Assembly (NCBI RefSeq): GCF_964194155.1
Contig: NC_135899.1
Location: 79,918,001 to 79,982,000, forward strand
Reading direction: 5' to 3'
DNA from: Cetorhinus maximus
Taxonomy: Eukaryota
DNA: 64,000 nt
This document shows positions 3,226-64,000 of the stretch, one piece after another. The notes beneath the pieces were generated by a model, which saw only the letters and a list, made by a program, of their open reading frames with translations, made no database searches and was not told where the DNA came from. Position numbers and translations under genes: made by a program. Within the stretch, counting starts at the first letter, position 1, and each line of letters starts with the position of its first letter.

Positions 3226-3840
3226 GTATCATCTACAAGAAGCACTGCAGGAATTCACCAAGGCTCCTTAGACAGTACCTTCCAAACCCACAACCACTAC
3301 CACCTAGAAGGACAAGGGCAGCAGATAGATGGGAGCACCACCGCCTGGAAGTTCCCCTGCAAGTCACTCACCATCCTGACTTGGAAATATATCGCCGTTC
3401 CTTCAGTGTCGCTGGGTCAAAATCCTAGAACTCCCTTCCTAACAGCACTGTGGGTGTACCTAAACTGCATGGACTGCAGTGGTTCAAGAAGAAGCTAGCT
3501 GCACCCTTAACCAAGCTGTCCCAGTACAGCTACAACAGTGGCTTCTACCCAGCAATGTGGAAAATTGCCCAGGTATTTCCTGTCCACAAAAAGTAGGCCA
3601 AATTCAACCCAGCCAATTACCACCCCCATCAGTCTACTTTTGATCATGATGTAAGGTGACATTGACAGCGCTATCAAGTGGCATTTACTCAGCAACAAAC
3701 TGCTCACTGACGCTTAGTTTGGGTTCCGCCAGAGCCACTCGGCTCCTGACCTCATTATGGCCTTGGTCCAAACATGGACCAAAGAGCTGAACTCTAGAGG
3801 TGAGTTAAGAGTGACTGCCCTTGACATCGAGGCAGCATTT
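3226..3840 (+). mobile_element. Inverted pieces of the same family A LINE (3' segment 3226-3497; RT N-terminal segment 3505-3840)
   Basis: 3226-3497 is the reverse complement of ~2190-2460. 3505-3840 encodes MWKIAQVFPVHKK*AKFNPANYHPISLL...LDIEAAF. Confidence 0.8.
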
Positions 3841-3984
3841 TTTTTATTCATTCATGGGATGTGGGCTTCGCTGGCTGGGCCAGCATTTATTGCCCATCCC
3901 TAGCTGCCTCTATTTGGAGCAAGTCATAACACAAATCAGGGAAACACTAGAGTAATACTTTCCAGTGATCAAAACACCATAATA

Positions 3985-12813: not shown

Positions 12814-12912
12814 TCTGAAGTCATACAGACTCAAAACATTAACTCGGTTTCTCTCTCCACAGATGCTGCCAGACCTGCTGAGTTTTTCCAGCATTTTCTG
12901 TTTTCATTTCAG
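12814..12912 (+). mobile_element. Penelope-like terminal repeat fragment
   Basis: 'ctgaagtcatacagactcaaaacattaactcggtttctctctccacagatgctgccagacctgctgagtttttccagcattttctg' matches the arm of the 7221-7440 element. Confidence 0.7.
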
Positions 12913-14312: not shown

Positions 14313-14945
14313 GAAAACAAACTCCTGCAGATGCTGGAAATTGGAAATAAAAACAAAAAATACTGGAAAAACTCAGCAGGTCTGACAGCATCTATGGAGA
14401 AAAAAAAGAGTTAACGTTGTGTCCATATGACTCTTCTTTAGAGCTAAAGAAAAGTAGAAATGTGACGGATTTTACACTGTTTAAGAGAAGATGGAGCAGG
14501 CGGAGCCAGATGCTTGCTCTCATGCCCACATGTCCGTCCTTGGCCTGCTGCAATGTTCCAGTGAAGCCCAACGCAAACTGGAGGAATAGCACCTCAGCTT
14601 CTGATTAAGCACTTTACAGCCTTCTGGACTTATCATCGAGTTCAACAACTTCAGACCATGAACTCTCTCCTCAATCTTTGCCCCTTTTTTTAAACCAATT
14701 TTTTTTTAAAATTTTAATTTATTTTTATTTATTCATTCTTTTTTTAATCCTACTCCCCCAACCACCCCCACTATATTGTGCTTTCACAGCTGACCCTTGT
14801 TCTGCTATTAACACATTCTGCTTACTTTCATGCCACTCTCAGCACCTTTAGTCTTTACCACTACCATTAACACTCCCTTTATCTTGTGTCCGTGACATCT
14901 TTGTTAATCTTTCCTTAGCTCCCATCTATCCCTGGCCTTCTATCT
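14313..14945 (+). mobile_element. Penelope-like retroelement remnant: inverted terminal repeat, GIY-YIG endonuclease C-terminus and 3' region
   Basis: 14521-14661 translates HAHMSVLGLLQCSSEAQRKLEE*HLSF*LSTLQPSGLIIEFNNFRP*, the typical PLE endonuclease end 'RKLEEQHLIFRLGTLQPxGLNxEF'. It is preceded by an inverted terminal repeat at 14313-14510. Confidence 0.8.
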
Positions 14946-16119: not shown

Positions 16120-16910
16120 GTAAGGCATAAAATATCCTGGGCTTTGTAAATTAAGACATAAAGTGCAAAAGCAAGGAGATTATGATGGACCTGTATAAAA
16201 CACTGGTGCAGCCTCAAGTAGAACAATACATCCAATTCTAGGCACTGCATTTTAGGAAGGACGTGAAGATATTGGGGAGGATACAGAAAAATTTACATTA
16301 ATTATTTTTTATTCTTTCATGGGATGTCGGCATCGCTGGCTGTACCAACATTTATTGCCCATCCCTAATTGCCTTTGAGAACTGAGTGGCTTGCTAGGCC
16401 ATTTCAGAGGGCATTTTAAGAGTCAACCACATTGATGTGGGTCAGGAGTCACATGTAGGCCAGACTGGGTAAGAATGGCAGATTTCCTTCCCTAAAGGAC
16501 ATTAGTGAACCAGATGGGTTTTTACGACAATCAGCAATGGTTTCATGGTCATTAGACTTTTAATTCCAGGTTTTTTTATTGAATTCAAAGTTCACCATCT
16601 GCGGTGGTAGAATTGGTGGAAGAATCAAGAGCCAGGGTTATGCTGAATAGCAAAAGAACCAAAAGTGACATGAGGAAAAACGTTTTTACTCAGTGAGTCA
16701 CTAGGATCTGGAATGCACCCGCCTGAGATTGATGGAGCCAAATTCAATCATGGTTTTCTAAAGGGAACTGGATAATTATCTGAATGGAAAAAATTTGCAA
16801 GATTACAGGGAAAGGGAGTCAGTGGGACTAGCTGAGTTGCTCTTGCTGAGAGCCAGCACAGACATAGCAGGCTAAATGGCCTTCTGTGCTGTGACCATTC
16901 TATGATTCTT
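16120..16910 (+). mobile_element. CR1 3' fragment interrupted by a SINE
   Basis: '...aaaagcaaggagattatgatggacctgtataaaacactggtgcagcctcaagtagaa' (LYKTLVRPQLE) and a CR1 3' end 'aatggccttctgtgctgtgaccattctatgattct'. Confidence 0.75.
16303..16615 (-). mobile_element. SINE (family A tail), 5'-truncated
   Basis: Reverse complement of the core and tail seen at 48587-48931. Confidence 0.8.
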
Positions 16911-23819: not shown

Positions 23820-24146
23820 ACTACACTGTCGAATATGCTATCTTTCGGATGAGACGTTAGACCAAAGCCCCGTCTGCATTCTCTGGTGGATGCACAGCAA
23901 CCTATGGTGCTATTTTGAAGAAAAGAGGAGTTATCCCTGGCTAATATTTATTCTTCAATCAACATCTCAAAAACAGATTATCTGGTTATCGCATTGCTGT
24001 TTGAGAGAGCTTGCCAAGTGCAAATTGGCTGCTGCGTTTCCTATAATACAACAATGGCTACCATTCAAAAGTCTCCTATTGTCTGTGAAATGCTTTGGGG
24101 CATTGAGGTTGTGAAAGTAGCTATATAAATCCAAGTCTTTCTTCCA
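23820..24146 (+). mobile_element. Deu-domain SINE (SacSINE1/AmnSINE1-like)
   Basis: 'tttcggatgagacgttagaccaaagccccgtctgc...aaacagattatctggttatcgcattgctgtttg...gcaaattggctgctgcgtttcct' is the Deu core. It ends in an L2-like tail 'gctatataaatccaagtctttc'. Confidence 0.8.
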
Positions 24147-31689: not shown

Positions 31690-34600
31690 GGAGGAGGAAC
31701 GGGAGCAGGAGGATGAAAGGGAGGGAGAGGGGAAAGAGGAGCTATGGGGGGGGAGGAGTTGGGTCAACGGAGTGAGGGGGGAGGAGGGGGGTCAACGGAG
31801 GGAGGAGGAGCAAGGGGGCCATGAAGCGGGGGGGGAGGAGGGGTGTCAATGGAGCGAGGGGAGCAATGGAGGGAGGACGAGGAAGGGGGCAATGGAGCGA
31901 GGTGGGGGAGGAGGATGGGAGCCACGGAGCGAGGGGGGGGGGAGGAAGGGGGCCACAGAGCGGGGGGGGGGGGACCACAGGGTGAGGGGGGGGGAAGGGG
32001 GCCACTAAGCGAGGGGGAGGAGGATGGGGCCATGAAATGAGGGGGAGCAAGGGAGCAAAGGGGGACCGAGGGGGAGCAAGGGAGGACCGAGGGGGAGAAA
32101 GGGAGCAAAGGGGGAATGAAGGGGAGCAAGGGGGGGCCGAGGGGGGGACCAGGAGGAAACGAGGGGGGACCGGGGGGGGGGAGAAGCGAGGGGGAACCCG
32201 GGGGGAGCGAGGGGGGACCAAGGTTGGGGGGGGGAGCGAGGGGGGACCGAGGGGTTGCGAGGGGGGACCGAGGGGTTGCGAGGGGGGACCGAGGGGTTGC
32301 GAGGGGGGACCGAGGGGTTGCGAGGGGGGACCGAGGGGTTGCGAGGGGGGACCGAGGGGTTGCGAGGGGGGACCGAGGGGGGACCGGGGGGAAGCGAGGG
32401 GGGAAACGAGGGAGCAAGGGGGGACCGAGGGGGAGCGAGGGAGCGAAGGGGGACCGAGGGGGAGCGAGGGACCGAGGGGGCGAGGGACCGAGGGGCGAGG
32501 GACCGAGGGGGCAACGGGGCGAGGGGGCGAGGGGGGCAATGGGGCGAGGGGGGCAACGGGGCGAGGGGGCAACGGGGCGAGGGGGCAACGGGGCGAGGGG
32601 GGCAACGGGGCGAGGGGGCAACGGGGCGAGGGGGGCAACGGGGCGAGGGGGCAACGGGGCGAGGGGGCAACGGGGCGAGGGGGCAACGGGGCGAGGGGGG
32701 AAACGGGGCGAGGGGGGAAACGGGGCGAGGGGGGAAACGGGGCGAGGGGGGCAACGGGGCGAGGGGGGCAACGGGGCGAGGGGGGCAACGGGGCGAGGGG
32801 GCAACGGGGCGAGGGGGGAGCGAGGGGGCAATGGGGCGAGGGGGACCACGGGGTGAGGGGGAGCGAGGGGGGCAAGGGGGCGATGGGGAGCGAGGGGGCA
32901 ACAGGGCGAGTGGGAGGGAGGGGGCAACGGGGCGAGTGGGAGCGAGGGGGGCAACGGGGCGAGGGGAGCGAGGGGGCAACGGGGCGAGGGGGAGCGAGGG
33001 GGGCAACGGGGCGAGGGGGAGCGAGGGGGGCAACGGGGCGAGGGGGAGCGAGGGGGGCAACGGGGCGAGGGGGAGCGAGGGGGGCAACGGGGCGAGGGGG
33101 AGCGAGGGGGGCAACGGGGCGAGGGGGAGCGAGGGGGCAACGGGGCGAGGGGGAGCGAGGGGGGCAACGGGGCGAGGGGGAGCGAGGGGGGCAACGGGGC
33201 GAGGGGGGCAACGGGGCGAGGGGGAGCGAGGGGGCAACGGGGCGAGTGGGAGCGAGGGGGGCAACGGGGCGAGTGGGAGCGAGGGGGGCAACGGGGCGAG
33301 TGGGAGCGAGGGGGGCAACGGGGCGAGTGGGAGCGAGGGGGGCAACGGGGCGAGTGGGAGCGAGGGGGGGCAACGGGGCGAGTGGGAGCGAGGGGGGCAA
33401 CGGGGCGAGTGGGAGCGAGGGGGCAACGGGGCGAGTGGGAGCGAGGGGGGCAACGGGGCGAGTGGGAGCGAGGGGGGCAACGGGGCGAGTGGGAGCGAGG
33501 GGGGCAACGGGGCGAGTGGGAGCGAGGGGGGCAACGGGGCGAGTGGGAGCGAGGGGGGCAACGGGGCGAGTGGGAGCGAGGGGGGCAACGGGGCGAGTGG
33601 GAGCGAGGGGGGCAACGGGACGAGTGGGAGCGAGGGGGGCAACGGGGCGAGTGGGAGCGAGGGGGGCAACGGGGCGAGTGGGAGCGAGGGGGGCAACGGG
33701 GCGAGTGGGAGCGAGGGGGGCAACGGGGCGAGTGGGAGCGAGGGGGGCAACGGGGCGAGTGGGAGTGAGGGGGGCAACGGGGCGAGTGGGAGCGAGGGGG
33801 GGGCAACGAGGCGAGGGGGCAACGGGGCGAGGAGGGCAACGGAGCGAGGGGGCAACGGAGCGAGGGGGCAACGGAGCGAGGGGGCAACGGAGCGAGGGGA
33901 GCAACGGGGCGAGGGGAGCAACGGGGCGAGGGGAGCAACGGGGCGAGGGGAGCAACAGGGCGAGGTGGGCATTGGGGCGAGGGGACATCAGGGCGAGGGG
34001 GCATCGGGGCGAGGGGGCATCGGGGTGAGGGGGAGCAAGGGGGCAACAGCGCGAGGGGGGCAATGGGGCTAGGGGGAGCGGTGGGCAACGGAGCGAGAAG
34101 GAGCGGGGGCAATGGATTGAGGGACAGCCACGGAGCGGAGGGGGGCAACGGAGCGAGGAGGAGCGGGGGCAATGGATCAAGGGACAGCCACGGAGCAGAG
34201 GGGGGCAACGGAGCGAGGAGCGGGGGCAACGAAGCGAGGGAGGAGAGGCGGGGCAAAGAATTAAGGGACGGCCACGGAGCGGAGGGACGGCCACGGAGCG
34301 GAGGGACGGCGAGGGGGGCAACGGAGTGAGGGAAAGCGAGGGGGGCAACAGAACGAGGGGGGCAATATAGGGAGGGGATTGAGGGGGAGCAACGGAGCGA
34401 GGGGGAGCAGCGTAGCAAAGGGGAGCGAGAGGGGCCGACGGAGTGAGGGTGAGCGGAGCGAGGGGGGGGCCGACCGACGGAGCGAGGGAGGGCCGACCGA
34501 CGGAGCGAGGGGGGGGCCGACCGACGCTGCGAGGGGGGGCCGACCGACGCTGCGAGGGGGGGGCCGACCGACGGAGCGAGGGGGGGGGCCGACCGACGGA

Positions 34601-37600
34601 GCGAGGGGGGGGCCGACCGACGGAGCCTGGGGGGGGCAACGCAGCCTGGGGGGGGCAACGCAGCCTGGGGGGGGCAACGCAGCCTGGGGGGGGGCAACGC
34701 AGCCTGGGGGGGGCAACGCAGCCTGGGGGGGGGCAACGCAGCCTGGGGGGGGCAACGCAGCCTGGGGGGGGGCAACGCAGCCTGGGGGGGGCAACGCAGC
34801 CTGGGGGGGGAGCGGGGGGGGGGGGGGTCAACGGAGAGAGGGGGTCAACGGAGAGAGGGGGTCAACGGAGAGAGGGGGGCAACGGAGAGAGGGGGGCAAC
34901 GGAGAGAGGGGGGCAACGGAGAGAGGTGGGGCAACGGAGGAGGGAGCAATGTAGGGGGGGGAAGCGGAGAGAGCAGGGCAACCGAGAGAGAACCGAGGGA
35001 GGGGCGAGACGGGGGGGAGGGGCGAGACGGGGGGGAGGGGCGAGACGGGGGGGAGGGGCGAGACGGGGGGGAGGGGCGAGACGGGGGGGAGGGGCGAGAC
35101 GGGGGGGAGGGGCGAGGCGGGGGGAGGGGCGAGGCGGGGGGAGGGGCGAGGCGGGGGGAGGGGCGAGGCGGGGGGAGGGGCGAGGCGGGGGGAGGGGCGA
35201 GACGAGGGGAGGGGCGAGACGGGGGGAGGGGCGAGACGGGGGGGAGGGGCGAGACGGGGGGGAGGGGCGAGACGGGGGAGGGGCGAGACGGGGGGAGGGG
35301 CGAGACGGGGGGAGGGGCGAGACGGGGGGAGGGGCGAGACGGGGGGAGGGGCGAGACGGGGGGAGGGGCGAGACGGGGGGAGGGGCGAGACGGGGGAGGG
35401 GCGAGACGGGGGGAGGGGCGAGACGGGGGGAGGGGCGAGACGGGGGGAGGGGCGAGACGGGGGGAGGGGCGAGACGGGGGGAGGGGCGAGACGGGGGGGA
35501 GGGGCGAGACGGGGGAGGGCGAGACGGGGGGAGGGGCGAGACGGGGGGAGGGGCGAGACGGGGGGAGGGGCGAGACGGGGGGAGGGGCGAGACGGGGGAG
35601 GGGCGAGACGGGGGGAGGGGCGAGACGGGGGGAGGGGCGAGACGGGGGAGGGGCGAGACGGGGGAGGGGCGAGACGGGGGGAGGGGCGAGACGGGGGGAG
35701 GGGCGAGACGGGGGGAGGGGCGAGACGGGGGGAGGGGCGAGACGGGGGAGGGGCGAGACGGGGGGAGGGGCGAGACGGGGGGAGGGGCGAGACGTGGGGG
35801 AGGGGCGAGACGTGGGGAGGGGCGAGACGTGGGGAGGGGCGAGACGGGGGGAGGGGCGAGACGGGGGGAGGGGCGAGACGGGGGGAGGGGCGAGACGGGG
35901 GAGGGGCGAGACGGGGGAGGGGCGAGACGGGGGGAGGAGACAGGCGTCGGGCAACGGAGCGACGGGAGCGAGGGGGCAACGGGGTGACGGGAGCTAGGGG
36001 GGGCAACGGAGCGACGGGGGGAAACGGAGCGACGGGAGCAAGGGGGACAACGGAGCGACAGGAGCAAGGGGGCAACGAAGCGACAGGAGCAAGGGGGCAA
36101 CGAAGCGACAGAGCAAGGGGCGAGACGGGGTTATGGGGTGGGGCGTAGGAAAGGGGCTGGGAGGGGCAAGGGGGAGGGCTGGGACTAGTGGGGGCAGATG
36201 GGAAGAGGGGCGTGTTGGCAGGGATTGGGAGAGGGTGGGGTGGTAGGTGTGTAGAGGGTTCAGGAGGGGGATGGGGGTAGGTGGGAGAGAGCAGGGGCTA
36301 GGGGGATGGGGGAAGGGGAGCAGGGGGTTGGGAGCAGGGGGGACGGGGGGCACTGGGTAGGGGCAAGGGGGGCTGGGGGTAGGGGGGCAGGGCGTAGGAG
36401 GAGTAGGGGGCAGGGGGAAGGAGGAGTAGGGGGCAGGGGGAAGGAGGAGTAGGGGGCAGGGGGAAGGAGGAGTAGGTCGTAGGGGGAAGGAGGAGTAGGG
36501 GGAAGGAGGAGTAGGGGGGCAGTGGGAAGGAGGATTAGGGGGCAGGGAGAAGGAGGATTAGGGGGCAGGGAGAAGGAGGAGTAGGGGAGCAGGGGGAAGG
36601 AGGAGTAGGGGGGCAGGGGGTAGGAGGAGTAGGGGGGCAGGGGGAAGGAGGAGTAGGGGGGCAGGGGGAAGGAGAAGTAGGGGACAGGGGGAAGGAGGAG
36701 TAGGGGGGCAGGGGGAAGGAGGAGTAGGGGGGCAGGGGGAAGGAGGAGTAGGGGGGCAGGGGGAAGGAGGAGTAGGGGGGCAGGGGGAAGGAGGAGTAGG
36801 GGGGCAGGGGGAAGGAGGAGTAGGGGGGCAGGGGGAAGGAGGAGTAGGGGGGCAGGGGGAAGGAGGAGTAGGGGGGCAGGGGGAAGGAGGAGTAGGGGGG
36901 CAGGGGGAAGGAGGAGTAGGGGGGCAGGGGGAAGGAGGAGTAGGGGGGCAGGGGGAAGGAGGAGTAGGGGGGCAGGGGGAAGGAGGAGTAGGGGGGCAGG
37001 GGAAGGAGGAGTAGGGGGGCAGGGGGAAGGAGAAGTAGGGGGGCAGGGGGAGGAGGAGTAGTGGGGCAGGGGAAAGGAGGAGTAGGGGGCAGGGGGAAGG
37101 AGGAGTAGGGAGCAGGGGGAAGGAGTAGGGAGCAGGGGGAAGGAGGAGTAGGGGGCAGGGGGAAGGAGGAGTGGGGGGCAGGGGGAAGGAGGAGTGGGGG
37201 GCAGGGGGAAGGAGGAGTGGGGGGCAGGGGGAAGGAGGAGTAGGGGGGAAGGAGGAGTAGGGGGGCAGTGGGAAGGAGGAGTAGGGGGGCAGGGGGAAGG
37301 AGGAGTAGGGGGGCAGGGGGAAGGAGGAGTAGGGGGGCAGGGGGAAGGAGAAGTAGGGGGGCAGGGGGGAGGAGGAGTAGTGGGGCAGGGGAAAGGAGGA
37401 GTAGGGGGCAGGGGAAAGGAGGAGTAGGGGGCAGGGGGAAGGAGGAGTAGGGAGCAGGGGGAAGGAGTAGGGAGCAGGGGGAAGGAGGAGTGGGGGGCAG
37501 GGGGAAGGAGGAGTAGGGGGGAAGGAGGAGTAGGGGGGAAGGAGGAGTAGGGGGGAAGGAGGAGTAGGGGGGAAGGAGGAGTAGGGGGGCAGGGGGAAGG

Positions 37601-37755
37601 AGGAGTAGGGGGGCAGGGGGAAGGAGGAGTAGGGGGGCAGGGGGAAGGAGGAGTAGGGGGGCAGGGGGAAGGAGGAGTAGGGGGGCAGGGGGAAGGAGGA
37701 GTAGGGGGGCAGGGGGAAGGAGGAGTAGGGGGGCAGGGGGAAGGAGGAGTAGGGC
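31690..37755. repeat. ~6 kb G-rich composite minisatellite at the start of intron 1
   Basis: Successive arrays: 21-bp gcgaggggggaccgaggggtt (~32240-32375); 16-17-bp ggcaacggggcgagggg (~32510-32820); 27-bp ggcaacggggcgag(g/t)gggagcgagggg (~32960-33790); ggccgaccgacggagcgagggg (~34470-34620); 20-21-bp gcaacgcagcctggggggg (~34625-34810); 17-19-bp gaggggcgagacggggg (~34997-35935); 24-bp ggaggagtaggggggcagggggaa (~36395-37755). Confidence 0.97.
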
Positions 37756-46507: not shown

Positions 46508-47485
46508 TTTTTTTTATTCTTTCACAGGATGCGGGCATTGCTGGCTAGGCCAGCATTTATTGCCCATCCCTAATTGTCCTTGAGAAGGTGGTGGTGATCC
46601 GCCTTCTTGAACTACTGCAGCCCATGTGGTGTAGGTGCACCTGCAGTGCTGTTAGGAAAGGAGTTCCAAGATTTTGACCCAGCGACAGTGAAGGAACAGC
46701 AACATAGTTCCAAGTCAAGATGATGTGAAGCTTGGAAGGAACTTGCAGGTGGTGGTGTTCCCATGCATTTGTTGCCCTTTTCCTTCTAGGTGGTAGAAGT
46801 TGCAGGTTTGGAAAGTGCTGTCCAAGGGGCCTTGGTGAGCATTGGTGGTGTACGGAGTAAATGTTGAAGGTGGTGGATGAGGTGGCAATCAAGTAGGCTG
46901 TTTTGTCCTGGATGCTATCAAGATTCTTGAGTGTTGTTAGAGCTGCACTCATCCAGGCAAGTGGAGAGTATTCCATCACACTCCTAACCTGTGCCTTGTA
47001 GATGGTGGAGAGGCTTTGGAGAGTCTGGAGGTGAGTTACCCACCACAGAATTCCCAGCCTCTGACCAGCTCATATAGACACAGTATTTTTATATGGTTGG
47101 TCCAATTCAGTTTCTGGTCAATGGTAACCCCCAGGATATTGATAGTGAGGGATTCAGCAATGGTAATGCCATTGAATGTCAAGGGAAGATGGTTGGATTC
47201 TGTCTTGTTGGAGTTGGTCATTGCCTGGCACTTATGTGGCGCAAGTTTTACTTGCCACTTATCAGCCTAAGTTTGAATGTTGTCCAGGTCTTGCTGTATA
47301 TGAGCATGGACTGCTTCAATATCTGTAGTCACGAGTGGTGCTGAACATTGAGCAATCATCAGCGAACACCCCCACTTCTGACTTATGATGGAGGGAAGAT
47401 CATTGATGAAAAAAGCTTGGACCTAGGACACTACCCTGAGGAACTCCTACCGTGATGTCCTCAGACTGAGACGACTGACTTCCAA
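46508..47485 (-). mobile_element. Family A CR1-group LINE 3' fragment
   Basis: ORF 46557..46979 MEYSPLAWMSAALTTLKNLDSIQDK and ORF 47036..47221 INILGVTIDQKLNWTNHI. Same tail as 2104-2160. Confidence 0.85.
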
Positions 47486-47819: not shown

Positions 47820-48325
47820 ATAAAAGACTTGCATTTATACATCTCCTTTCAACACTTCAGGACATTCAAAGTGCTTTACAGCCAATGAGGTACTTTTGAA
47901 GTGCAGTCACTGTTGTAATGTAGGAAACACAGCTGCCAATTTGCACACAGTAAGATCCCACAAACAGTAATGTGATAATGACTAGATGATCTGTCTTTAG
48001 TTGTTGGTTGAAGGATAAGTATTGGCCAGGACACCAAGGATAACTCCCCAGTTGTTCTTCAAATTAGTGCAATGGGATCTTTTATATCAGGGCAGACGGG
48101 GGCCTGGGTTTAACAATGCATGTGAAAGATGGCACCTCCTGGACTGCAGAATTCCCTCAGTACTGCCCCTCCAGCAGTGCCGCACAACCTCAGTACTACC
48201 CCTTAATGCAGCATTCCCTCAATACTGCCCCTCTGACACTTCAACGCTCCCTCAGTACTGCATTAGAAGTGTCTGCCTGATTATGTGAGGTGAGAGACTG
48301 CTACCCACTGAGCCACAGCTGAAGG
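47820..48325 (-). mobile_element. Deu-domain SINE with tRNA-derived head and internal tandem expansion
   Basis: Minus-strand head 'tcagctgtggctcagtgggtagc', with Deu core and tail as at 23820-24146. Confidence 0.8.
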
Positions 48326-48586
48326 GCTAAATAAACAACAAGTGAAAGAAGTAAGGGAAAGAAAGAAAGCAAAGGATTGAACGGGAAAAGAAGGGAGAGA
48401 GTTGGAGTGCAACTCATGGACAGAAAGAAGGGAAGTTGGTAAGTGAGGAAAGAAACAGCTAGAATGACTGGAGTGAGGAAGAGAGACAGAGAGGAAAGAG
48501 CAAAAAAAAAGAACAAGAGGCAGAGATAGAGAAAAAAATAACAACTTGTAGGAGAAGCCAGGTGAGCCTCCCCTTCAGCAGGAGTC

Positions 48587-48931
48587 GGTGGCATCATGGC
48601 ATTGTCTCTGGACTGGTAATCTAGACACCCAGGGTAATGCTCTGAGGACCTGGATTCAAAACCCACCACAGAAGATGGTGAAATTTGAATTCAATAAAAA
48701 TCTGGAATTTCAAGTCTTATGATGGCCACATAGCCATTGTCAATTGTCATAAAAACAAATCTGGTTTACTAATCTCCTTTAGGGAAGGAAACCTGCCGTA
48801 CTTACCTGGTCTGGCCTACATGTGACTCCAGATCCACAGCAATGTGGTTGACTCTTAAATGCCCTCTGAGCAAGGGCTAAAAATGCTGGCCTAGCCAGTG
48901 ATGCCCACATCCCATGAACGAATAAGAAAAA
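48587..48931 (+). mobile_element. Full-length tRNA-derived SINE sharing the family A LINE tail
   Basis: A-box 'tggcatcatgg' (48589), B-box 'ggattcaaaaccc' (48652), core 'tttagggaaggaaacctgccgtacttacctggtctggcctacatgtgactccag', tail 'atgctggcctagccagtgatgcccacatcccatgaacgaataa'. Confidence 0.85.
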
Positions 48932-51325: not shown

Positions 51326-51334
51326 GAAAGAAAA

Positions 51335-51642
51335 GGAAGGCTTGCATTTATACAGCACCTTTCATGACCACCAGACATCTCAAAGCACTTTACAATCAAT
51401 GAAATACTTACTGAAATATAGTCACTGTTGTAGGAAACACAGCAGCCAAATTGCACACAGTAAGCTCTTACAAACAGCAATGTGATAGGTAACCTATTTT
51501 TGTGATGATGTTTGAGAGATAAATATTGGCCAGGACACTAGGGATAATTCCTTTACTCTTCTTCAAAATAGTACCATGAGATCTTTTACAAGACCTGAAA
51601 GGCAGATGGGGCCTCGATTTTAATGTCTCATCTGAAAGACAG
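51335..51642 (-). mobile_element. Deu-domain SINE, 5'-truncated
   Basis: Reverse complement of the Deu core and tail ('gcttgcatttatacagcacc...taggaaacacagcagccaaattgcacacag...gggcctcgattttaatgtctcatctgaaag'). Confidence 0.8.
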
Positions 51643-53330
51643 GGAGAAACACTAGTGTACTGATGGGCTGAATGGCCTGTTTCTGTGCTGAAAATTTCTG
51701 CGCTGACAGTGTGATGATATCTTCAACGTGTCTTTAACCATGAGAAGAGACATGCAGAATCTTGGTAAAAACACAAGAGAGAGGGGATTGAACAAGAGAA
51801 AGGAAGCAAGGGAGAGAATGAGAAAGAAGGGAGGAGCAGGAAGAGAGAAACAAGGCAGAAAATTGTACACAATACACAGAAAAGATCCTGATCTAATTCA
51901 GTTTACACAGATTTCCTGGGATCCAAATATGAAGACAGTTTTCTTCTGTCTTGACCCAAAAACTAGTAATTGTCACCACTTCTGTTTTCTGTTTAAGGCC
52001 ATTTTACCCGAGTGGAATTTTCAATTTCTGACTGAATCTATTAGATTTACCATAATTAAATATTTTAAAAGAAATTTATAACATTCACAGGCTTCACATC
52101 GATGTAAAATGTGAATATAAATACAATCATCCACCATTCGCCTGGAATATGTACACAAACCACCCACTTTGAATCCCTTCGAATCGTCCCAATTTTTTTG
52201 CATTTTTTAAAAGTAGGTCACTTAAAAACAATAATAACATTCAATATTTTATTCCTCGAGAATGAATACACTTGGCATTGGGGCCGGAGTGTTGTGTGTT
52301 GCTGTTTCTCTCCCAGCTGTCAGCATGATCACATTGCCAGCAGTGAGTGAGACTCACCACAACTCCATTGCAATCCTGGGACTGTGTTGCAGGCAAGGCT
52401 CTATTTTTAAACACTGCTGCTCATGGAGGCTGCTTATTTTGTGTGACTGAGTATCAGGCTGGGCTCTCGTTTTCATTTCGTTCTCTACATCCTCCTTCTG
52501 TTGCATTTAAAACAAACCCAACTTTCTGCTAATGGATCCCATTGCACAAGAAGAAGTCCATTAAATGTTTTATTGATTAAAATGCTGGTTTGCTGCGCAG
52601 TTTCTTTTGTTTCAGTGGGTGAGCTGTGAGTTGTGTGAAATGCTCCTGTTTTAATGCAGGCTGTGTGCAGGTCAGAGAGAGCAGGCTGCACCTCCCCAGG
52701 GACATGGATTCCACTCACTCTAAACCCTTCAAAACCCCAATTCCTGCACAAACACCCACTGCTGATGGGGGGGACAGGGAGGCAGGACACCCCAGGAAGG
52801 AACCTGCAGCAGTTTCTGGCCCAAACATTGTGTTATTAGCTTGTTTTTTTCAGCTTTTTAATGTGCAACTTCTCAGAATCCAGTCCGGGTTTTAAACTGG
52901 TTTCCCCTCTTCAATGTACTGTGTGCTCAAAGCTGCAGCACTCACTGGCAGCCGCTGCTCCTTCCACCCTCCCCTGGCTCCCATGCCCCTCACAAACACC
53001 TTCCCGGCCCAGGCCGGGCTGCACCCTGCTTCCGGCACCTCCTGCCCCGCCCGGCCTCACTGCTCCCAGTGGCTGCTCGCCGGCCTCATCCTCTGAGACA
53101 GCGGCGCACTCTTTTGTCAAGCTGTCCTTTTGGCACATTCCTGTGTTATTGCGCAGCGCTCTGTCTCTCGCTCTTCCTGGAAACTCCCGCCCAAAGCAGA
53201 GAAACCAGAGAAACAACAAGAACAGCAAAGAGAACTAACTCACAGCACACTGTCAGCACAGAAAACTGCACAGAGGGCACAGAACAAGCCAGAGCTGAGA
53301 AAACAAGATCTGTAGGGGGGGGGGGGGGGA

Positions 53331-53790
53331 ACAGAGCAGAGAAACAACAAGATCTGTAGAGGGGAAACAGAGCAGAGAAACAACAAGATCTGTAGAGAGG
53401 AAACAGAGCAGAGAAACAACAAGATCTGTAGAGGGGAAACAGAGCAGAGAAACAACAAGATCTGTAGAGAGGAAACAGAGCAGAGAAACAACAAGATCTG
53501 TAGAGGGGAAACAGAGCAGAGAAACAACAAGATCTGTAGAGGGGAAACAGAGCAGAGAAACAACAAGATCTGTAGAGAGGAAACAGAGCAGAGAAACAAC
53601 AAGATCTGTAGAGGGGAAACAGAGCAGAGAAACAACAAGATCTGTAGAGAGGAAACAGAGCAGAGAAACAACAAGATCTGTAGAGGGGAAACAGAGCAGA
53701 GAAACAACAAGATCTGTAGAGGGGAAACAGAGCAGAGAAACAACAAGATCTGTAGAGGGGAAACAGAGCAGAGAAACAACAAGATCTGTG
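53331..53790. repeat. Homogeneous 36-bp tandem repeat, ~12.7 copies
   Basis: Unit acagagcagagaaacaacaagatctgtagag(g/a)ggaa, contiguous, no spacers. Confidence 0.97.
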
Positions 53791-56335
53791 GAGAGGATAA
53801 AAAGCAAACCAGAGCAGGAAAACAACAAGACCTGTAGTGAGGACACAGAGTAGACTAGAGCAGGGAAAGAACAAGAGCCGTGGGGAGAACACAGCAAATT
53901 AGAGCAGAAAAAAGAACACATCATCATAGAAATCGCAGAACAAACCAGAGCAGAGAAAGAACATAACTAGAGAGGACAGTAAAGTGGAGAAGAAACAATA
54001 CATGTAGAGAGCAGACTAGAGAGGACAAACATGATTGGTAGAGAGAAATCGGAGCAAACTAGAGAAGAGAAACAACAAGATCTGTAGAGGACACAGACCA
54101 AGGGAGCCACAACACCATCTATAGAGAGAAAACAGAACAAACTACTGTGGAGAAAACAAAATCCGTAGAGGATACACAGAGCAATTAGAGCAGAGAAGCA
54201 ACAAAAACTAGTCAGGACACATCTAGAGAAGAGAAAGAACGAGATCTGCAGAGAGGACCCACAACAGTCTACAGCAGAGAAAGATAAAGTACAATAGAGA
54301 GGACACAGCAAACTACAACAAGAACTGTATAGAGGACACAGTGCATTGGAGCAGCAAAGGGACACAAAATGTAGCGAGGACATGGAAAACTAAAGCAGAG
54401 AAATAACAAAAACTGGGAGTAGGCCACAGACCAAATTAGAGAAGATAAACAACAAGACCTGAAGAAGAACATAGTGCAAACTAGAGCAGGGATACAACAA
54501 GAAACTAGAGAGGAGGCAGCAAACCTCCTCTGAGGAGTGAAATATCAAAATGTGTCAAAAGGACAAACAGTAAACTAAAAAAGGGAAAGAACAAGGTCTG
54601 CATGAAGGACCCACATTAATCTACAGCAGGGAAAGACGAAGTACTGTAGAGAGGACAGAATGCACTAGAGCATTGAAGGAACACAAACTGTAGAGAGGAC
54701 ACAGAAAGTTAAGCCTAGAAAGAATACAAGAGAATACAGACCTAATTAGGGCAAAGAAACAAGACCTGTAAAGAGAATGCAGAGCAAACTAAAGCAGAGC
54801 AACAAGATGTGTTCAGAGGACACAGAGAACTGGAACATAAAAATAACAAGATCTATAGAGGACACAGCAAACTAGAGCAGAGATGACATCCAGAAATGTC
54901 GAGAGGACAGAGTAAATTAGAGCAGCAAAGGATACAGAAAACTAAAGCAGAGAAAGAACACAAACTGCAGAGAGAACACAGTCCAAATTGGAGTAGAATA
55001 ACAACAAGATCAGTAGAGGTGACAGCAAATTAGAGCAGTGAAAGAACTCAAACTGTAGTGAGAGAAAATTAAAGCAGAGAACAAGAAAAACTATAGATGG
55101 CACATTAACCAGAGCAGAAAAACAACATATTAGTTTGCTGTAGTCCTTTACACCAAATGTGGAAAAAGAACATAATCTAAGAAAGGACACAGCAAACAAG
55201 AGCAGAGAAAGAACAAGATTTGGAATGACACCACAGCAAACTAGAGCAGAGAAACGAGATCTATAGAGTTAACAGAGCAAACTGCAGCAGAGAAAGAACA
55301 AGGTATGCATTGATGACGAGAAAACTAGAGCAGAGAAACAAAATATATAGAGAGAAAAGAGCAAATTAGAGCAGAGAAGAAAACAAGACCTGTAGCAAGG
55401 ACAAGAGCAGAGGAATAACGACAAGTGTAACAGAACAAAGTGGAATAGAGAAACAAGATGTGTAGAGAGGTCACACAGAAAACAAATGGTGAAAGAATAA
55501 GATCTATATAGAAGGCACAAATTTAGAGCAGAGAAACAAGAAGAGCTGTAGAGAGGACACAGAGCAAACTATAGCAGTGAATAAAAATGCAAAGAAGATA
55601 TCAACCATTAAAGCAAAAACATAAACTACACTTTGTCATATTAGAGCAGAGGAACAAGAAAACCTGTGGAGAGAACACAGAGCAAACTGGACCAGAAAAA
55701 GAACATAAAGAGAAGAGACAGCAAACTACAGCAGAAAAACAGTACAAACTGTAGAGAGGATACAGAATCACAGAATTGTTAAGGTGTACAAGGAGGCCAT
55801 TCGGCCCATCGTGTCTGCACTGGCTCTCTGAGCATTTTAACTTAGTGCCAATCTCCTGCCTTTTCCCCATAAGCCTGCACATTGTTTCTATTTAAATAAT
55901 CATCCAATGCCCTCTTGAATGCCTCAATTGAATTTGCCTCCAGCACACTTCTAGGCAGTGCATTCCAAACCCTAACCACTCGCTGTGTGAGGATGCAGGA
56001 AATTAGAGCAGAGAAAGAACAAGATCTATAGAGGGGGTACAGAGCAAACTACTACGGAGAAAGAACAAGATCTGTAGACAGGACAGAGAGCAAACTAGAG
56101 CAGAAAAAATAGACATGCTGTAGAGAGGACACAGAAAACTAGAGCAATAAAGCCACACAAGCTCCATAGAGGACCCAGAAAACTAAAGCAGAGAAAGAAT
56201 GCTAACTGCAGAGAGAACACACAACAGACTAAAGTGGAGAAAGAACCAGAACTGTAGAGAGGACCCAGAGCAAACTAGAGCAGAGAAACCAGTTTGATAG
56301 AGAGGGCAAAAAACAAATTACAGCAGAGAAGGAAA
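53790..56335. repeat. Degenerate ~46-bp satellite related to the 36-bp array
   Basis: Unit acacagagcaaactagagcagagaaagaacaagatctgtagagagg; period 46 between 56041 and 56087. Confidence 0.85.
55763..55990 (-). mobile_element. CR1 3' end inserted in the satellite
   Basis: 'cagaatcacagaattgttaaggtgtacaaggaggccattcggcccatcgtgtctgcactggctct...gcattccaaaccctaaccactcgctgtgtga'. Confidence 0.8.
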
Positions 56336-56439
56336 CACAAACAGTGGGAGGCTTATGCTAATGTACAAAGTAAGAAGCATGAACTCCAGCTTGACAGAAT
56401 ACTGCTTCTACAGAGTACTTAACTTGGGAAATTCGGTGA

Positions 56440-57935
56440 ATGAGGGAATTTGGTGCAGTGAGGGAAGAGGTGCTGACATGGTTTTTACAAATCAAGGAGG
56501 GGTCTGAGAGATGTAGGGAGAGACAGTGAGACCTGAAGTCTAGACGCATTAATTAGGTGAGTTGGTTGGTGAGTTTTAAGGTTTTTCTTTCTTCAAAACT
56601 ACAGCAGTAGTTTAAACTAGGACTGAGAAAATATAAATACTGTATTAAATTTATAACAACTAGTTAAAGTAATTGTTGAATAAATTCTTTAACTAATAAA
56701 TAAATAAAATAAGGTTAGTTTAAGAAGTGACAGAGCAGGTTGTGTGTCTGGACTGCAGGATCTGAGAGTTTGTGAACGATGAGACTTTCCTGAGCAAACA
56801 TGTCTACAGGAGATGTCTCTGTTTTGAATCTCTCTGGCTGGAGTGCGAGTTTGCGAGACTCCAACATATAAAGGAGGAGTAAGAATTTCTGGACAGTGTT
56901 ATCCAGAATATAGTCACACCCCAGGGGAAAACACAGGTTCAGGAAAGGGAGGGTGTCAGGGAGTCAGGCAGCAGCAATTTAAGAGAGGCTGAGAAGGACG
57001 TGCTATAGACACTGGTCCTGTCCAACAGGTCTGATGCACTCACTACCTGTGAAGACAAGGAGTAAGTTTGCAGAAAGGACAGCCACAATGCAGGCCAAGG
57101 CAATGTAGCACAGAAGGCTGTTGAAGGTGTGGTGGGAGGGGGGCGTGGTGGAGTTGGTGGGAGAAGAGTAGAATATAAATGTGGTAGTAATAGGGGCCTC
57201 TATAAACAGGGGGATGGATAGCATTCTCTGCAGCCAAGAACAAGAATTCAAAAGAGTGTGTTGCCTACTCAGTGTCAGGATGAGGAATATGTCATGAGCT
57301 TGGAAAGGGGTAAATCCAATTGTCTTGGAATAAACAATACAGGTAGCGACAGGGAATGGGGCCTGCTGAAAGAGTATCAAGAGTTAGGCTTGAAATTAAA
57401 GAGCATGCAGTTCTGGTTGCCATATTATAAAAAGGATACAGATGCAATGGAGAGGGCGCAGAGAAGACTTACAAGTATAATACCAGAACTGGATGGGTAT
57501 ACATATCAGGAAAGGATTGATAGGCTGGGTCTCTTTTCTTTGAAAAAAGAAGGCTGGGGGTGACCTAATAGAGGTTTTTTAAATTATTAAAGATTTTGAT
57601 AGAGTGGATATAGAGAGAATGTTTCCACTTGTGAGGAAGAGCTTAATTAAAAATCATCAATATAAGATAATCACCAATAAATCCAATAGGGAATTCAGAA
57701 GAAACTTCTTTACCCAAAGAACAGTGAGAATGTGGAACTTGCTATCACAGAGAGTGGTTAGAGCGAATAGTGTAGGTGTATTTAAGGGGAAGCTAGACAA
57801 ACATATGTGGGAGAAACAAATAGGGAGTTACAATGATAGATTTAGATGAGGAAAGATCGGAGGAAGCTTGGATAGAGCACAAACTCCAGGTTGGGCCAAA
57901 TGGCTTGTTTCTGTGCTGTATATACTATGTAATCA
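56440..57935 (+). mobile_element. CR1 5' UTR and ORF1 remnant joined to a CR1 3' end
   Basis: Zinc-finger remnant VVCLDCRI*EF..HVYRRCL (~56740-56820) and esterase remnant VVIGASINRGMDSILC (~57183-57231). At ~57405 it jumps to QFWLPYYKKDTDAMERAQRRLT and ORF 57604..57849. Confidence 0.75.
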
Positions 57936-58489
57936 TATCTAAGCAAAGTAGGGCAGAGAATAACAAGGGCCTTGAAATTTGGCTCCTTGGTGCCCGGTCA
58001 CTTGGCACTACGAGTGCTGCTTTGCCTTCAAAATGGTGCCTGTAGTACAAGTGCTCACTTAGTTGCTAGACATTTTGGTGAGGGTGTTAGTGCATGTGCA
58101 GGGAGCATCCACTGGAAGTATGTGGGTTAGGCAGATCGTGAGGTCAATCATCATGGAACACAGATTTGATGCCAGCGCTTCCATTATGGAGCCCAACGCT
58201 CCAGATAATGCCCTTTCTTAACATCACACAGCTGAATACGTGTCCAGTGGCAGGAAGGACCCACACCTGCACTATTTAAAGGGGTCATCAACCAATTTCA
58301 GCTTAGTTGCTGTTTGAGTTCTCATGACTTTTGGTGTGATTGTAAAAGTGTTTGGTGGTTTTCAGAGCTGCTTAAAAGTTGCTGGTGTCTACCGGTGGTG
58401 GTTTGTCACACGCTGTAGGACTTTGTCCTGACTTCAAGGATTCTTTACCAACCACTTGATGCCAGGCATGGGTGCAGTAGTGTGTCTGT

Positions 58490-59185
58490 TTCATCAGTTG
58501 AGGGAGAGAAGTAGGCAGTGATCAGCAGGAGGTTTCCTAGCCCATGTTTGACCTGATGCCATGAGACATCATGGGGATGTCTTAACGGGGACCGGAGTCA
58601 ATATTGAAGACTCCGATTGCCACTCCTTCCTAAATGTATACCAAAGTGGAACATCCTCCAATAGGGCAAGACATACCCAGGGATGGTGGTGGAGGAGATT
58701 GGGACATTAACTGTAAGGTATGATTATGTGACTGTGTCAGGCTGTTGCTTGACTAGCCTGTGGAACAGCTCTCCCAATTTTGGCACAAGTCTCCAGGTGT
58801 TAGTGAAGAGGCTCGAGTGGGCAGGGTGTGCCTTTGTCATTTCCGGTGCCTAGGTTGGTGCTAGATGGTCCATCTGGTTTTATTCTTCTTTGACTTTTCT
58901 GTAGTGGTTTGGTACAACTGATGGCGGTTAAGAGTCAACCACAGTGCTGTGGGTTTGAAGTCACATGTAGGCCAGACTGGCTAAGGACAGCAGATTTATT
59001 CCTCTGTGGACATTAGTGAATCAAATGGATTTTTGTGATAATCAGGTAGGTGGTAGGTTCACAATTATTTTTAATGAGACTAGCATTTTATGCCAGACTT
59101 TATTAATTAATGCCTTTGAAACATTAGTCTGCGACTTTAACATTAGTCCAGTAACATTACCGACATTACCACTTTGCTACTACGC
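58490..59185 (-). mobile_element. 5' end of the family A LINE: tRNA-SINE-like head and core followed by an APE endonuclease N-terminus
   Basis: The minus strand from 58810 reads LFTNTWRLVPKLGELFHRLVKQQPDTVT*SYLTVNVP..TIPGYVL..., then HDVSWHQVKHGLGNLLLITAYFSPSTDE. 58925-59185 matches the SINE at 48587-48860. Confidence 0.75.
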
Positions 59186-59524
59186 TGTTCCTCCCCCACC
59201 CAATCCTCATGCCTGGTGCAGGATCAAAGCCTTATGACATCTGCCAGGATAGTGGGAATTCAGCAACATGATGTTCCGTGTATGGTTATGCACCAACTCA
59301 AAACACAGCATCCAACATTAGATGTGATTCCGCAATTGGACAATTGCTAAATAATCCTCAATGTGCTAAGAATTACGCTGACAAAAATTTAAGATTGTCA
59401 GTCGGACTCGCAGTGGGTGCATGTGCGTGTACTTGAAGCTACATAGATTAATACACAGGGCCCTGTTCTTTGCAGACAGAAAGAACATATACACACATTG
59501 TGCCTGTTTCAGCTAAGCAAAATA

Positions 59525-60839: not shown

Positions 60840-63800
60840 TAACAAGAGTGACATCACAAGACAGTGCAAGAGAGCGGCGGAGAGATCAGAATCAGTGTGA
60901 GTGCGGGGAAGTTTCAAAAAGTGACGTCAGCACAAAGGTGAGAGCTGATTGGTGAGTAGTGGGTAAGTGTTTTTCTCCAGTTATTTTCTCAAATTTAAAA
61001 TAGATTAAGCTAAGGAAAGGTAAGGGTTCTAGTTTTTATTTAAAGTACATAAATAATTTAATGTTTTTTTACTGTATTTAACTTAAAGTAAGGGTTTTTT
61101 TTCAACTAGAGACATGGCAGGGCAGCTCAGTCCCATGTTATGTACTGCCTGCAACATGTGGGAAGTCCTAGTCCTTGCACTCTGACCGACCACGTGTGCA
61201 GGAAATGCCACCAGCTGCAGCTACTTGAGCTCCGAGTTTCGGAGCTTGAGCGACAGCTGGAGGCACTGTGGTGCATCTGCGAGGCTGAGATTTTCGTGGA
61301 TAGCATGTTTTTAGACGTGGTCACCCTACAGCTTACAGAAGTGCAGACAGAGAGGGAATAGGTGACCATCAGTCAGAAGAAAGGTGTCAAGCAGGTAGTC
61401 AGGAAATCCCCAGGGTGCATCTCGCTCAAGAACCGGTTTTCTGTGTTGGAAAACGGTGAGAGTGACGGTTCCTCTGGGGAGTGCAGCCACGCTCATGGCA
61501 CTGTGAGTGGCTCAGCTGCACAGGGGGGGAGGAAAAAGAGGGTCGAGCAATAGTGGTAGGAGACTCGATAGTAAGGGGAACAGACAGACGTTTCTGCGGC
61601 CATAGATGTGACTCCAGGATGGTGTGTTGCCTCCCTGGTGCCAGGGCCAAGGATGTCACTGAACGGCTGCAGGGCATTCTAAAAGGGGAGGGCAAACAGA
61701 CAGAGATCATGGCACATATTGGTATCAACGACATAGGTAGAAAGAGGGATGAGGTCCTGCAAGCACAATTTAGGGAGCTAGGAAACAGATTAAAAAACAG
61801 GACCTCAAAAGTAGTAATCTCTGGATTACTTCCACGCGCTAGTGAGTATGGAAATAGGAGGTTAGTCCAGGTGAATGTCTGGCTGGAGAGATGGCGCAGG
61901 AGGGAGGGGTTTAGATTTCTGGGACATTGGGACTGTTTCTGGGGGTGGTGGGACATGTACAAGGCAGATGGGTTGCACCTGAATCGTAATGGGACCAACA
62001 TCCTTGTGAGAAGGTTTGCTAGTGCTGTTGGGAAGGGTTTAAACTAACTTGGCAGGGGGAATGGGATCCTGAGAGGAAGTTCAGCAGGGGGAGATGCACA
62101 GCCAAAATTAGAAAAGAGAGCAAATGAGTCTGGAAGGCATAGAAATTATAGGCCAGTTAAGGCACAAGGGAGTTTGGCAAGGTTGGATGGTATTTATTTT
62201 AATGCAATTTATTTAATGACGAATAAGGCAGATGAGTTGAGGGCACAAATTAACACATGGAAGTATGATGTCATTGCCGTCACAGAGACATGGTTGAGAG
62301 GAGGGCAGGATTGGCAGCTCAATATGCCAGGATATAGGGTCTTCAGGCGAGACAGGGAAGGAGGTAAAAGAGGAGGGGGTATCGCAATATTGATCAAGGA
62401 ATCAAATACAGCAGTAAGGAAGGATGACATGTTAGAAGGCTCTTCAAATGAAGCCATATGGGTAGAACTTAAAAACAAAAAAGGAGCAATCACATTTCTG
62501 GGAGTGTACTGTAGGCCCCCAAACAGTCAGAGAGAAATAGAAGAGCATATATGTCGGCAAATTTCAGAGAAGTGTAAAAATAATAGTGGGGGATTTCAAC
62601 TTCCCCAACATTAACTGGGTTAGTCATAGTGTGATAGGTTTAGAGGGAGCAGAATTCTTAAAATGCATCCAGGAGAGCTTTTTAAGCCAGTACATAGAAG
62701 GTCCTGCAAGGTTCTGGACTTAATTTTAGGGAATGAAGCCGGGGAAGTGGTAGAGGTATCAGTGGGGGAGCATTTTGCAGGTAGCGATCATAACTCCGTG
62801 AGATTCAAGGTTGTTATAGAAAATGACAAGGCTGGGCCAGAAATCAGAGTTCTAAATTGGGGGAAGGCCAATTTTAATAAAATCAGATAAGATTTGGCCA
62901 GAGTGGACTAGGAGCAGCTACTTTTAGGTAAATCTGCATCAGAGCAGTGGAACTCATTCAAGAAGGAAATAGGGAGTGTACAGGACCAACATATTCCAGT
63001 AAAGATAAAGGGTGGGGCCAACAAATCCAGGGAATCCTGGATGTTGAGGGATATACAGGATTTGATAAAGAGAAAAAGGGAGGCTTATGGCAGATACTGA
63101 GGGCTCAAAACAGCGGAAGCCCTAGAGGAGTATAGAATGTGTAGGGGGGAACTTAAAAAGGAAATTAGGAGAGCAAAAAGGGGGCATGAAAAAACATTGG
63201 CAGGTAAAATAAAGGAAAATCCAAAGTTATTGTACAAGTACATTGAGACCAAGGGGATAACTAGGGAAAGAATAGGGCCCATTAAGGACCATAGTGGTAA
63301 TTTGTGTGTGGAACCGGAAGACGTAAGTAGGGTTTTAAATGAATACTTTGTGTCGGTGTTCACTAGTGAGAGGGACGACGTGGGTAAGGAAATCAGGCAG
63401 AAGGACTGTGATATAATTAAAGAAATTAGCTTAGAAAGGAAGGAGGTTCTAAGTGGTCTGGCAGGCTTAACAGTAGATAAATCTCCAGGCTGGGATGAAC
63501 TGTATCCCAGGCTGTTGAGTGAGGCAAGGGAGGAGATAGCAGAGGTGCTGGTAATAATTTTCAATACCTCTCTGGCCACAGGAGAGGTGCCAGAGGACTG
63601 GAGGACAGCCAATGTGGTACCGTTATTCAAGAAGGAAGGAAGTGATAAACCAGGGAACTACATACCAGTTAGTCTAACCTCAGTGGTGGGGAAACTATTG
63701 GAAGCAATTCTGAGTTAATCAGAATTAATCTACACTTGGAGAGGCAGGTTAATCAAGGACAGTCAGCATGGTTTTGTTAAGGGGAGGTCATGTCTGACTA

Positions 63801-64000
63801 ATTTGATTGAATTTTTCGAAGAGGTGACCTGGTGTGTAGATAAGGGCAGTGCATTTGATGTAGTCTACTCGGACTTCAGCAAGGCTTTTGATAAGGTCCC
63901 GCATGGGAGACTGATAATGAAGGTAAGAGCCCATGGGATCCAAGGCAATTTGGCAAATTGGATCCAGATTTGTCTGAGTGGCAGGAAGCAGAGGGTGATT
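60840..64000 (+). mobile_element. 5'-complete CR1 LINE running off the window; ORF1 and ORF2 disrupted
   Basis: 5' UTR with gtgacgtca (60921). ORF1 from ATG 61114: MAGQLSPMLCTACNMWE, CRKC.QLQLLELRVSELERQLEAL (zinc finger/leucine zipper), VVGDSIVRG...HIGIND...DGLHLN (SGNH esterase), stop at 62047. ORF2: YFNA, DVIAVTETW, GDFN, SDH (APE); KSPGWDELYPRLL, VPEDWRTANVVPLFKK, DFSKAFDKVPH (RT). Multiple stops and frameshifts. Confidence 0.95.

Follow-up and report, generated by a model that had tools for sequence, protein, structure and literature searches.

The 64-kb window (the whole stretch of DNA analysed) contains, on its minus strand at 58486-59197, a broken, old copy of a LINE. The copy begins with a decayed tRNA-Ser-derived head and an AT-rich linker of the old-lineage type (59035-59197); the head's A box is damaged, and no B box is left. 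A conserved body common to the LINE and to short elements follows (58916-59034; the old and young lineages are 98% identical here), and then a leader found only in the LINE (58811-58915), composed of an A-rich spacer and a stretch in the ORF2 frame that is rich in Arg and, in the family consensus, contains no in-frame AUG. The N-terminal part of an APE endonuclease occupies 58486-58810 and is interrupted by stops and frameshifts; the domain was recognized as PF03372 on a sister copy, and the family match ends at 58486, where the window copy is broken off.

The initial annotation had described a decayed tRNA-like head and a SINE core that run on the minus strand into an APE endonuclease across about 115 bp. 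This description was accurate: the head starts at about 59197, the core extends to 58916, and APE can be read from 58810 onwards. The spacing is 105 bp in the window copy, which has a 10-bp deletion, and about 115 bp is the family distance. The copy belongs to the older of two lineages (457 bits against the old consensus versus 388 against the young one), and its core can be aligned at 77-82% with the 16-kb and 48-kb SINE copies. Neither ARAGORN nor Rfam called a tRNA in the decayed window copies. The stretch 57405-59298, comprising the broken LINE copy and roughly 1 kb of its flank, is duplicated about 7.7 kb away (L069, 3117-4974; 87% identity over 1.9 kb), and a CR1 element sits between the two duplicates.

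Further members of the same family, Zenon, are scattered over the window. The short derivative at 48581-48931 (plus strand) is of junction class A and has the full head, body, and tail. The one at 16302-16607 (minus strand) is of class B. The 16-kb copy had been presented as a SINE whose core end jumps to the LINE tail; the jump is there, but the copy is 5'-truncated, has no tRNA head, and spans family positions 97-312 only. The 48-kb copy does have the same tail, as well as a full head, but its junction differs, its 5' part being about 25 nt shorter. The tail attributed to the family A LINE was found at 46593-46563, in a 5'-truncated Zenon copy (46508-47485, minus strand) with the C-terminal RT half, the 3' UTR, and the A tail. 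Four more pieces lie between 2104 and 3908: the 3' part of a LINE copy (2104-3225, minus; family positions 2151-3282), a fragment (3224-3491, minus; family positions 2925-3192), an inverted piece (3490-3840, plus; family positions 1792-2149) that is continuous in family coordinates with the 2104-3225 piece, and a tail-only fragment (3834-3908, minus). The 5' piece is thus inverted relative to the 3' part in a twin-priming-like manner, with further family fragments between and beside them.

The junction between the SINE core and APE proved to be recurrent rather than unique. A search of the 4.0-Gb genome with positions 58600-58990 as the query gave 8,205 first-look candidates, and 39 non-self matches were scored. 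Thirty-six of these span the core to APE, and 30 of the 39 extended loci continue in the same orientation into RT-region pieces (1 was ambiguous and 8 did not), which joins this APE to the family A RT, as had been supposed. A search with the RT protein gave 138 copies, and 60 of these served as a sample independent of the junction. Sixteen reach the head, 4 stop in the body, 2 stop at the APE start, 35 are shorter, and 3 (L169, L175, and L176) are unjudgeable since the elements extend past the sequence examined; L129 was counted as a SINE beside a truncated LINE and not as a head-reaching copy. None of the 60 has an ordinary 5' UTR or ORF1, in line with the initial annotation, and no alternative shared 5' extension in register was present upstream of the 41 truncated copies compared. 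The common 5' start is sharp, with 13 of the 16 head-reaching copies beginning within the first 11 nt.

The LINE is about 3.27 kb long and has a fixed layout: head, body, leader, a single APE-RT frame of about 975 codons, a short 3' UTR, and an A tail. Pfam Exo_endo_phos and RVT_1 match stop-free pieces of real LINE copies. The head-body-leader-APE-RT architecture is, with near certainty, real and family-wide. The longest open frame among the 138 RT matches is 496 aa, and none is intact; thus, the family looks inactive in this genome. A search for target site duplications (TSD) in 60 copies yielded no systematic duplication. Several 5' truncation or deletion points of the RT-selected copies (L120-L179) fall at family positions of about 1720-1800.

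Judged by the match of its 5' end, the element is an elasmobranch Zenon LINE of the CR1 group, and the family is very abundant. Zenon elements of sharks and rays are described in passages of PMC13343379 (Genome Biol Evol 2026) as having no ORF1 and a poly-A tail, and A-rich ends are likewise found among the 81 tail matches listed here. The consensuses given there (CarCar_, HypSab_, RhiTyp_, ScyCan_, and SquAca_Zenon) number seven from five species, one of them a ray, and in the portions available all seven open with the same head and body. Their first 400 nt match head, body, and leader by eye, and their lengths are 2,886-3,314 nt; three hagfish and coelacanth Zenon consensuses from the same source have, by eye, no head and contain T4+ runs in their first 400 nt. 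Both the family and the ORF2-only layout were thus already known, and the absence of ORF1 is, on the passages concerned, a trait of all Zenon rather than a consequence of head capture (PMC13343379). The terms "tRNA" and "polymerase III" occur zero times in the main text of that paper, as does "tRNA" in its supplement, and the head, terminator avoidance, the missing AUG, and SINE derivatives are not treated in its passages. A whale shark preprint merely counts Zenon-like repeats in the excerpts at hand (10.1101/443036). Among the openly available papers listed by the literature searches, none describes a tRNA-headed autonomous LINE, and a metagenome scan found no Zenon DNA. The RT is 26-28% identical to that of the co-resident canonical CR1 and 35-42% identical to those of invertebrate or unnamed relatives. 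Canonical CR1 has an esterase ORF1 upstream of ORF2 that the LINE lacks; an upstream ORF of this kind, which we take to be GDSL-esterase-like, is present in the CR1 family used as a control below.

Judged from the family consensuses, the head is derived from tRNA-Ser, whether directly or by way of an earlier SINE, with A and B boxes retained at +11 and +75. The consensus heads of the LINE and the SINE both fold into an ARAGORN cloverleaf with a long variable arm (-ps95), which the program names Thr from the present anticodon. When compared with the genome's own tRNA-Ser(AGA), the head scored 66.5, whereas shuffled sequences (n=1000) scored 22.6 +/- 5.9 with a maximum of 45.5; the real tRNA-Ser genes were located by pattern search. 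Five tRNA-Ser(AGA) pattern matches lie within 100 kb at G000:C22:29872721-29966573, including one confirmed tRNA gene (L260). LINE and SINE copies share their start base, in the same G run. The tRNA nature is visible on the family consensuses only: Rfam at E<=5 on 10 decayed loci returned four chance-level matches, no tRNA, and no ribozyme.

A LINE read by Pol III along its whole length must be free of terminators on its sense strand. The shortest Pol III terminators are TTTT and TVTTT according to excerpts of PMC8466645, and we therefore counted T4+ or TVTTT. The young LINE consensus (32 copies) has 0 terminators in the sense strand of 3,273 nt and 25 in the antisense strand. The old-lineage consensus, built from 37 diverged alignments with 2,719 of the 2,795 ORF bases called, likewise has 0 and 25; the two lineages differ at 108 ORF positions, 64 of them third codon positions. 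The control, a CR1 family from the same window that was built in the same way from 24 copies, has 23 sense terminators at a T content of 22.6% versus 20.2% in the LINE, a comparison that involves this single control family.

Permutation of the ORF codons with protein and codon usage fixed gave 4.98 expected terminators against 0 observed (P = 0.0055), and the TTT count was 4 against 14.6 expected, with 0 of 2000 permutations as low. At codon junctions, synonymous third-position T is used at 0 of 38 sites where it would make TTT across codons and at 190 of 662 sites elsewhere (P = 1e-5). Analogous tests for A, C, and G, and for CR1, showed no effect, and isolated TT, AAA, CCC, GGG, and pyrimidine tracts were not depleted in the LINE ORF. 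T4+ alone was not significantly depleted with protein and codon usage fixed (0 versus 2.0, P = 0.13) or under order-1 and order-2 Markov models (P = 0.20 and 0.66), models that absorb the TT/TTT depletion itself. A mild depletion also affects TA (98 versus 114, P = 0.003), so that U is to some extent avoided in general. The Phe content of 1.94% is below that of all 69 full-length relatives (mean, 4.0%), and 10 of 19 conserved Phe columns have been lost, just somewhat above the loss for other residues.

Decayed copies gain T at TTT-making sites at an ordinary rate, 0.0267 (365/13,663) versus 0.0274 (3,833/139,787), which places the origin of the bias in the active lineage. The avoidance of terminators is not explained by host mutation bias. 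Together with the tRNA-type head, its extension over the whole LINE suggests a protein-coding element made by Pol III. A T4+ run, not counted as a terminator, occurs near the start of the A tail in 20 of 81 tail ends (L031-L099 and the window); it may have arisen through decay after insertion or mark a terminator present in certain source copies.

In the consensus frame the first Met is at residue 291, and APE is preceded by no in-frame AUG; of the 45 best-scoring relatives listed, nearly all start with Met, mostly within about 30 residues of APE. In P0002, the closest relative, it is the N terminus that aligns with the Arg-rich leader. The sole nearby ATG is out of frame; in 27 of 58 copies it sits 89 nt upstream of the Asn codon of APE. 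As the start of an essential mini-ORF1 or of a frameshift it was rejected: the triplet is ATG in 43 of 58 copies and ATA in 12 and in the old consensus, and the changes between the lineages keep Arg in the ORF2 frame. Conservation is highest in the body, which is 98% identical between lineages versus 96% for the ORF and has an unexceptional folding energy (z = -0.7). From these features we infer AUG-independent initiation, aided by the conserved body. In excerpts of PMC3383444, a tRNA-like structure at the 5' end of the uncapped RNA of the LINE L1Tc is proposed to act as an IRES; the likeness to the shark LINE lies in this proposed cap-independent translation from a structured 5' end.

We propose an autonomous Zenon-type LINE whose 5' end would be a tRNA-Ser-derived internal Pol III promoter. 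TFIIIC would bind the A and B boxes of the head, and Pol III, with terminators purged from the sequence, could transcribe all 3.3 kb. Translation of the uncapped RNA would proceed without an AUG, probably aided by the highly conserved body, and ORF2p would bind the 3' hairpin tail and copy the RNA by target-primed reverse transcription. With promoter and tail placed at opposite ends of the LINE, any internal deletion would produce a ready-made SINE, and this would have occurred more than once. Sequence evidence makes it fairly probable that the full-length LINE is transcribed by Pol III. With somewhat greater reserve, we also lean towards the complete scheme, that of an autonomous coding retrotransposon with end-to-end Pol III transcription, cap- and AUG-free translation, a frame recoded by selection against terminators since before the shark-ray split, and repeated birth of SINEs by deletion. 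Against this, a translated 3.3-kb Pol III RNA would lie far beyond the usual size range. Contigs from RNA runs (1 of 24 runs is on record as RNA) cover head/body and APE; no listed piece bridges the junction, and the contigs are silent on start, strand, and polymerase.

The strongest rival, which we hold to be unlikely though far from negligible, assigns the LINE transcript to Pol II, through host read-through or an unrecognised internal promoter, and leaves Pol III to the short derivatives only. The head would then be an RNA element acting in 5'-end processing, stability, or ribosome recruitment, and T runs would be avoided for a different reason, for instance nuclease sites or destabilisation by U-rich signals. 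The mild TA depletion and the rarity of U-rich codons (TTA in 0 of 87 Leu codons and TAT in 2 of 17 Tyr codons) fit this explanation, as does the L1Tc precedent, in which passages of PMC3383444 propose an IRES for an uncapped RNA with a tRNA-like 5' structure. However, the depletion concerns T specifically, in runs of three or near-runs and on the sense strand, with isolated TT and pyrimidine tracts at normal levels. It spans the ORF, a part missing from the short elements, and the co-resident CR1 is without such a bias. That LINE and SINE share their start base also speaks against this rival.

The short elements are about 350 nt long and dispersed, carry the tRNA-derived head with A and B boxes, and have a tail in common with the partner LINE; both of their parts are homologous to the ends of one LINE. 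They fall into at least four junction classes. Queries of classes A and B gave 67 short elements, 37 and 30 by pattern, a few being mislabelled or singletons. With an old head as the query, 20 of 40 matches were fetched, a choice that favoured short ones, and these comprised 6 LINEs, 12 short elements, 1 interrupted element, and 1 running into Ns. At least 6 of the 12 short elements belong to class E, in which about 20-25 nt of leader and the last 27 or so codons of ORF2 (about 80 nt) are retained, and 2 belong to class B'. Short elements that keep the LINE-only leader and the last ORF2 codons are most readily understood as internal-deletion derivatives, which bears out the initial annotation's view of the SINE; that the short elements are deletion products of the LINE is very likely on these sequences. 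Such births probably happened several times, a single shortening lineage with head exchange being a conceivable alternative.

The reverse direction, in which an independent tail-sharing SINE gave head and body to the LINE and the present SINEs descend from that SINE, appears improbable. Head and body could well have first originated as a SINE, the nesting of junction classes E, B, and A could reflect a single lineage of progressive shortening, and the tree of 5' parts is star-like and leaves young LINE and SINE copies unordered. This direction is difficult to reconcile, however, with the LINE leader and the ORF2 coding sequence held by the class E elements. Old heads accompany old LINEs, and the heads of young SINEs and young LINEs are intermingled, a pairing that would require repeated derivation or exchange, and the most diverged LINE copies are basal in the midpoint-rooted tree. 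An accidental nested insertion or isolated U6/L1-type chimeras from template switching, to which the broken state of the window copy and its distance from the RT pieces might have pointed, can be dismissed, since the same junction and 5' end recur in dozens of loci and, in the portions available, in the seven published consensuses from five species and since the 41 truncated copies compared offer no alternative 5' end.

The body of the shark short elements presumably differs from the V and Deu domains. The shark SINEs HE1 (V-SINE), SacSINE1 (DeuSINE), and SINE2-1_CM likewise combine a tRNA head with a LINE-shared tail, but with their listed partners HER1, CR1-4_DR-like, and CR1-2_CM they share the tail only, according to excerpts of PMC3747384. 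A closer parallel is Persaeus, a SIDE of lepidopteran Zenon, which in passages of PMC6740152 is likewise made of the 5' and 3' ends of a Zenon LINE via internal deletion. Persaeus has no tRNA homology or Pol III promoter, and SIDEs are defined in the same passages by the lack of a small-RNA head or Pol III promoter; in contrast, the shark derivative, although it arises in a SIDE-like manner, is formally a SINE because the LINE itself carries the tRNA-Ser head. Bipartite SINEs from RTE and Vingi LINEs, such as Bov-tA, also take body and tail from the 5' and 3' parts of a LINE (PMC5786205, excerpts). There, however, the tRNA head was added to a head-less LINE derivative, and in those excerpts this is confined to RTE and Vingi, whereas in the shark the autonomous LINE is itself headed. 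New here are the absence of sense-strand terminators and the avoidance of junction TTT; the Zenon family and its ORF1-less layout were known.

R2, for which cap-independent translation from a structured 5' end is likewise proposed, is not known to have a conserved AUG. R2, L1Tc, and similar LINEs whose uncapped RNAs carry 5' ribozymes are made by Pol I or Pol II and undergo self-cleavage, whereas the shark LINE copies keep their head and match no ribozyme family. By definition, LINEs are coding elements transcribed by Pol II (or through Pol I read-through), and SINEs are non-coding Pol III parasites. If Pol III transcription is confirmed, the shark element would be a new kind of LINE. Such a natural Pol III LINE would erase the divide between LINEs and SINEs, would be a natural instance of a long Pol III mRNA undergoing translation, and would offer an approximately 130-nt candidate element for cap- and AUG-independent initiation. 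SINEs would be born directly when a headed LINE undergoes deletion, which would also account for the origin of a conserved SINE body. The junction-TTT test can be used to screen other LINE libraries for Pol III-driven families.

The window holds several other kinds of repeats. A nearly full-length canonical CR1 (60907-63999, plus strand) runs on into L069, has an esterase-like ORF1, and is 94% identical to its family consensus; its family served as the control. Long tandem arrays that are GC-rich or of low complexity occupy 31700-37750 and 53280-56340, and the stop-free frames there are by-products of the repeats. A short palindromic, MITE-like family is present at 7222-7438, 12819-12910, and 14314-14444, and a similar sequence interrupts the element in L241. 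Another interspersed family of about 300 bp, found at 23838-24143, 47823-48084, and 51333-51642, resembles, we presume, a Deu-domain SINE.
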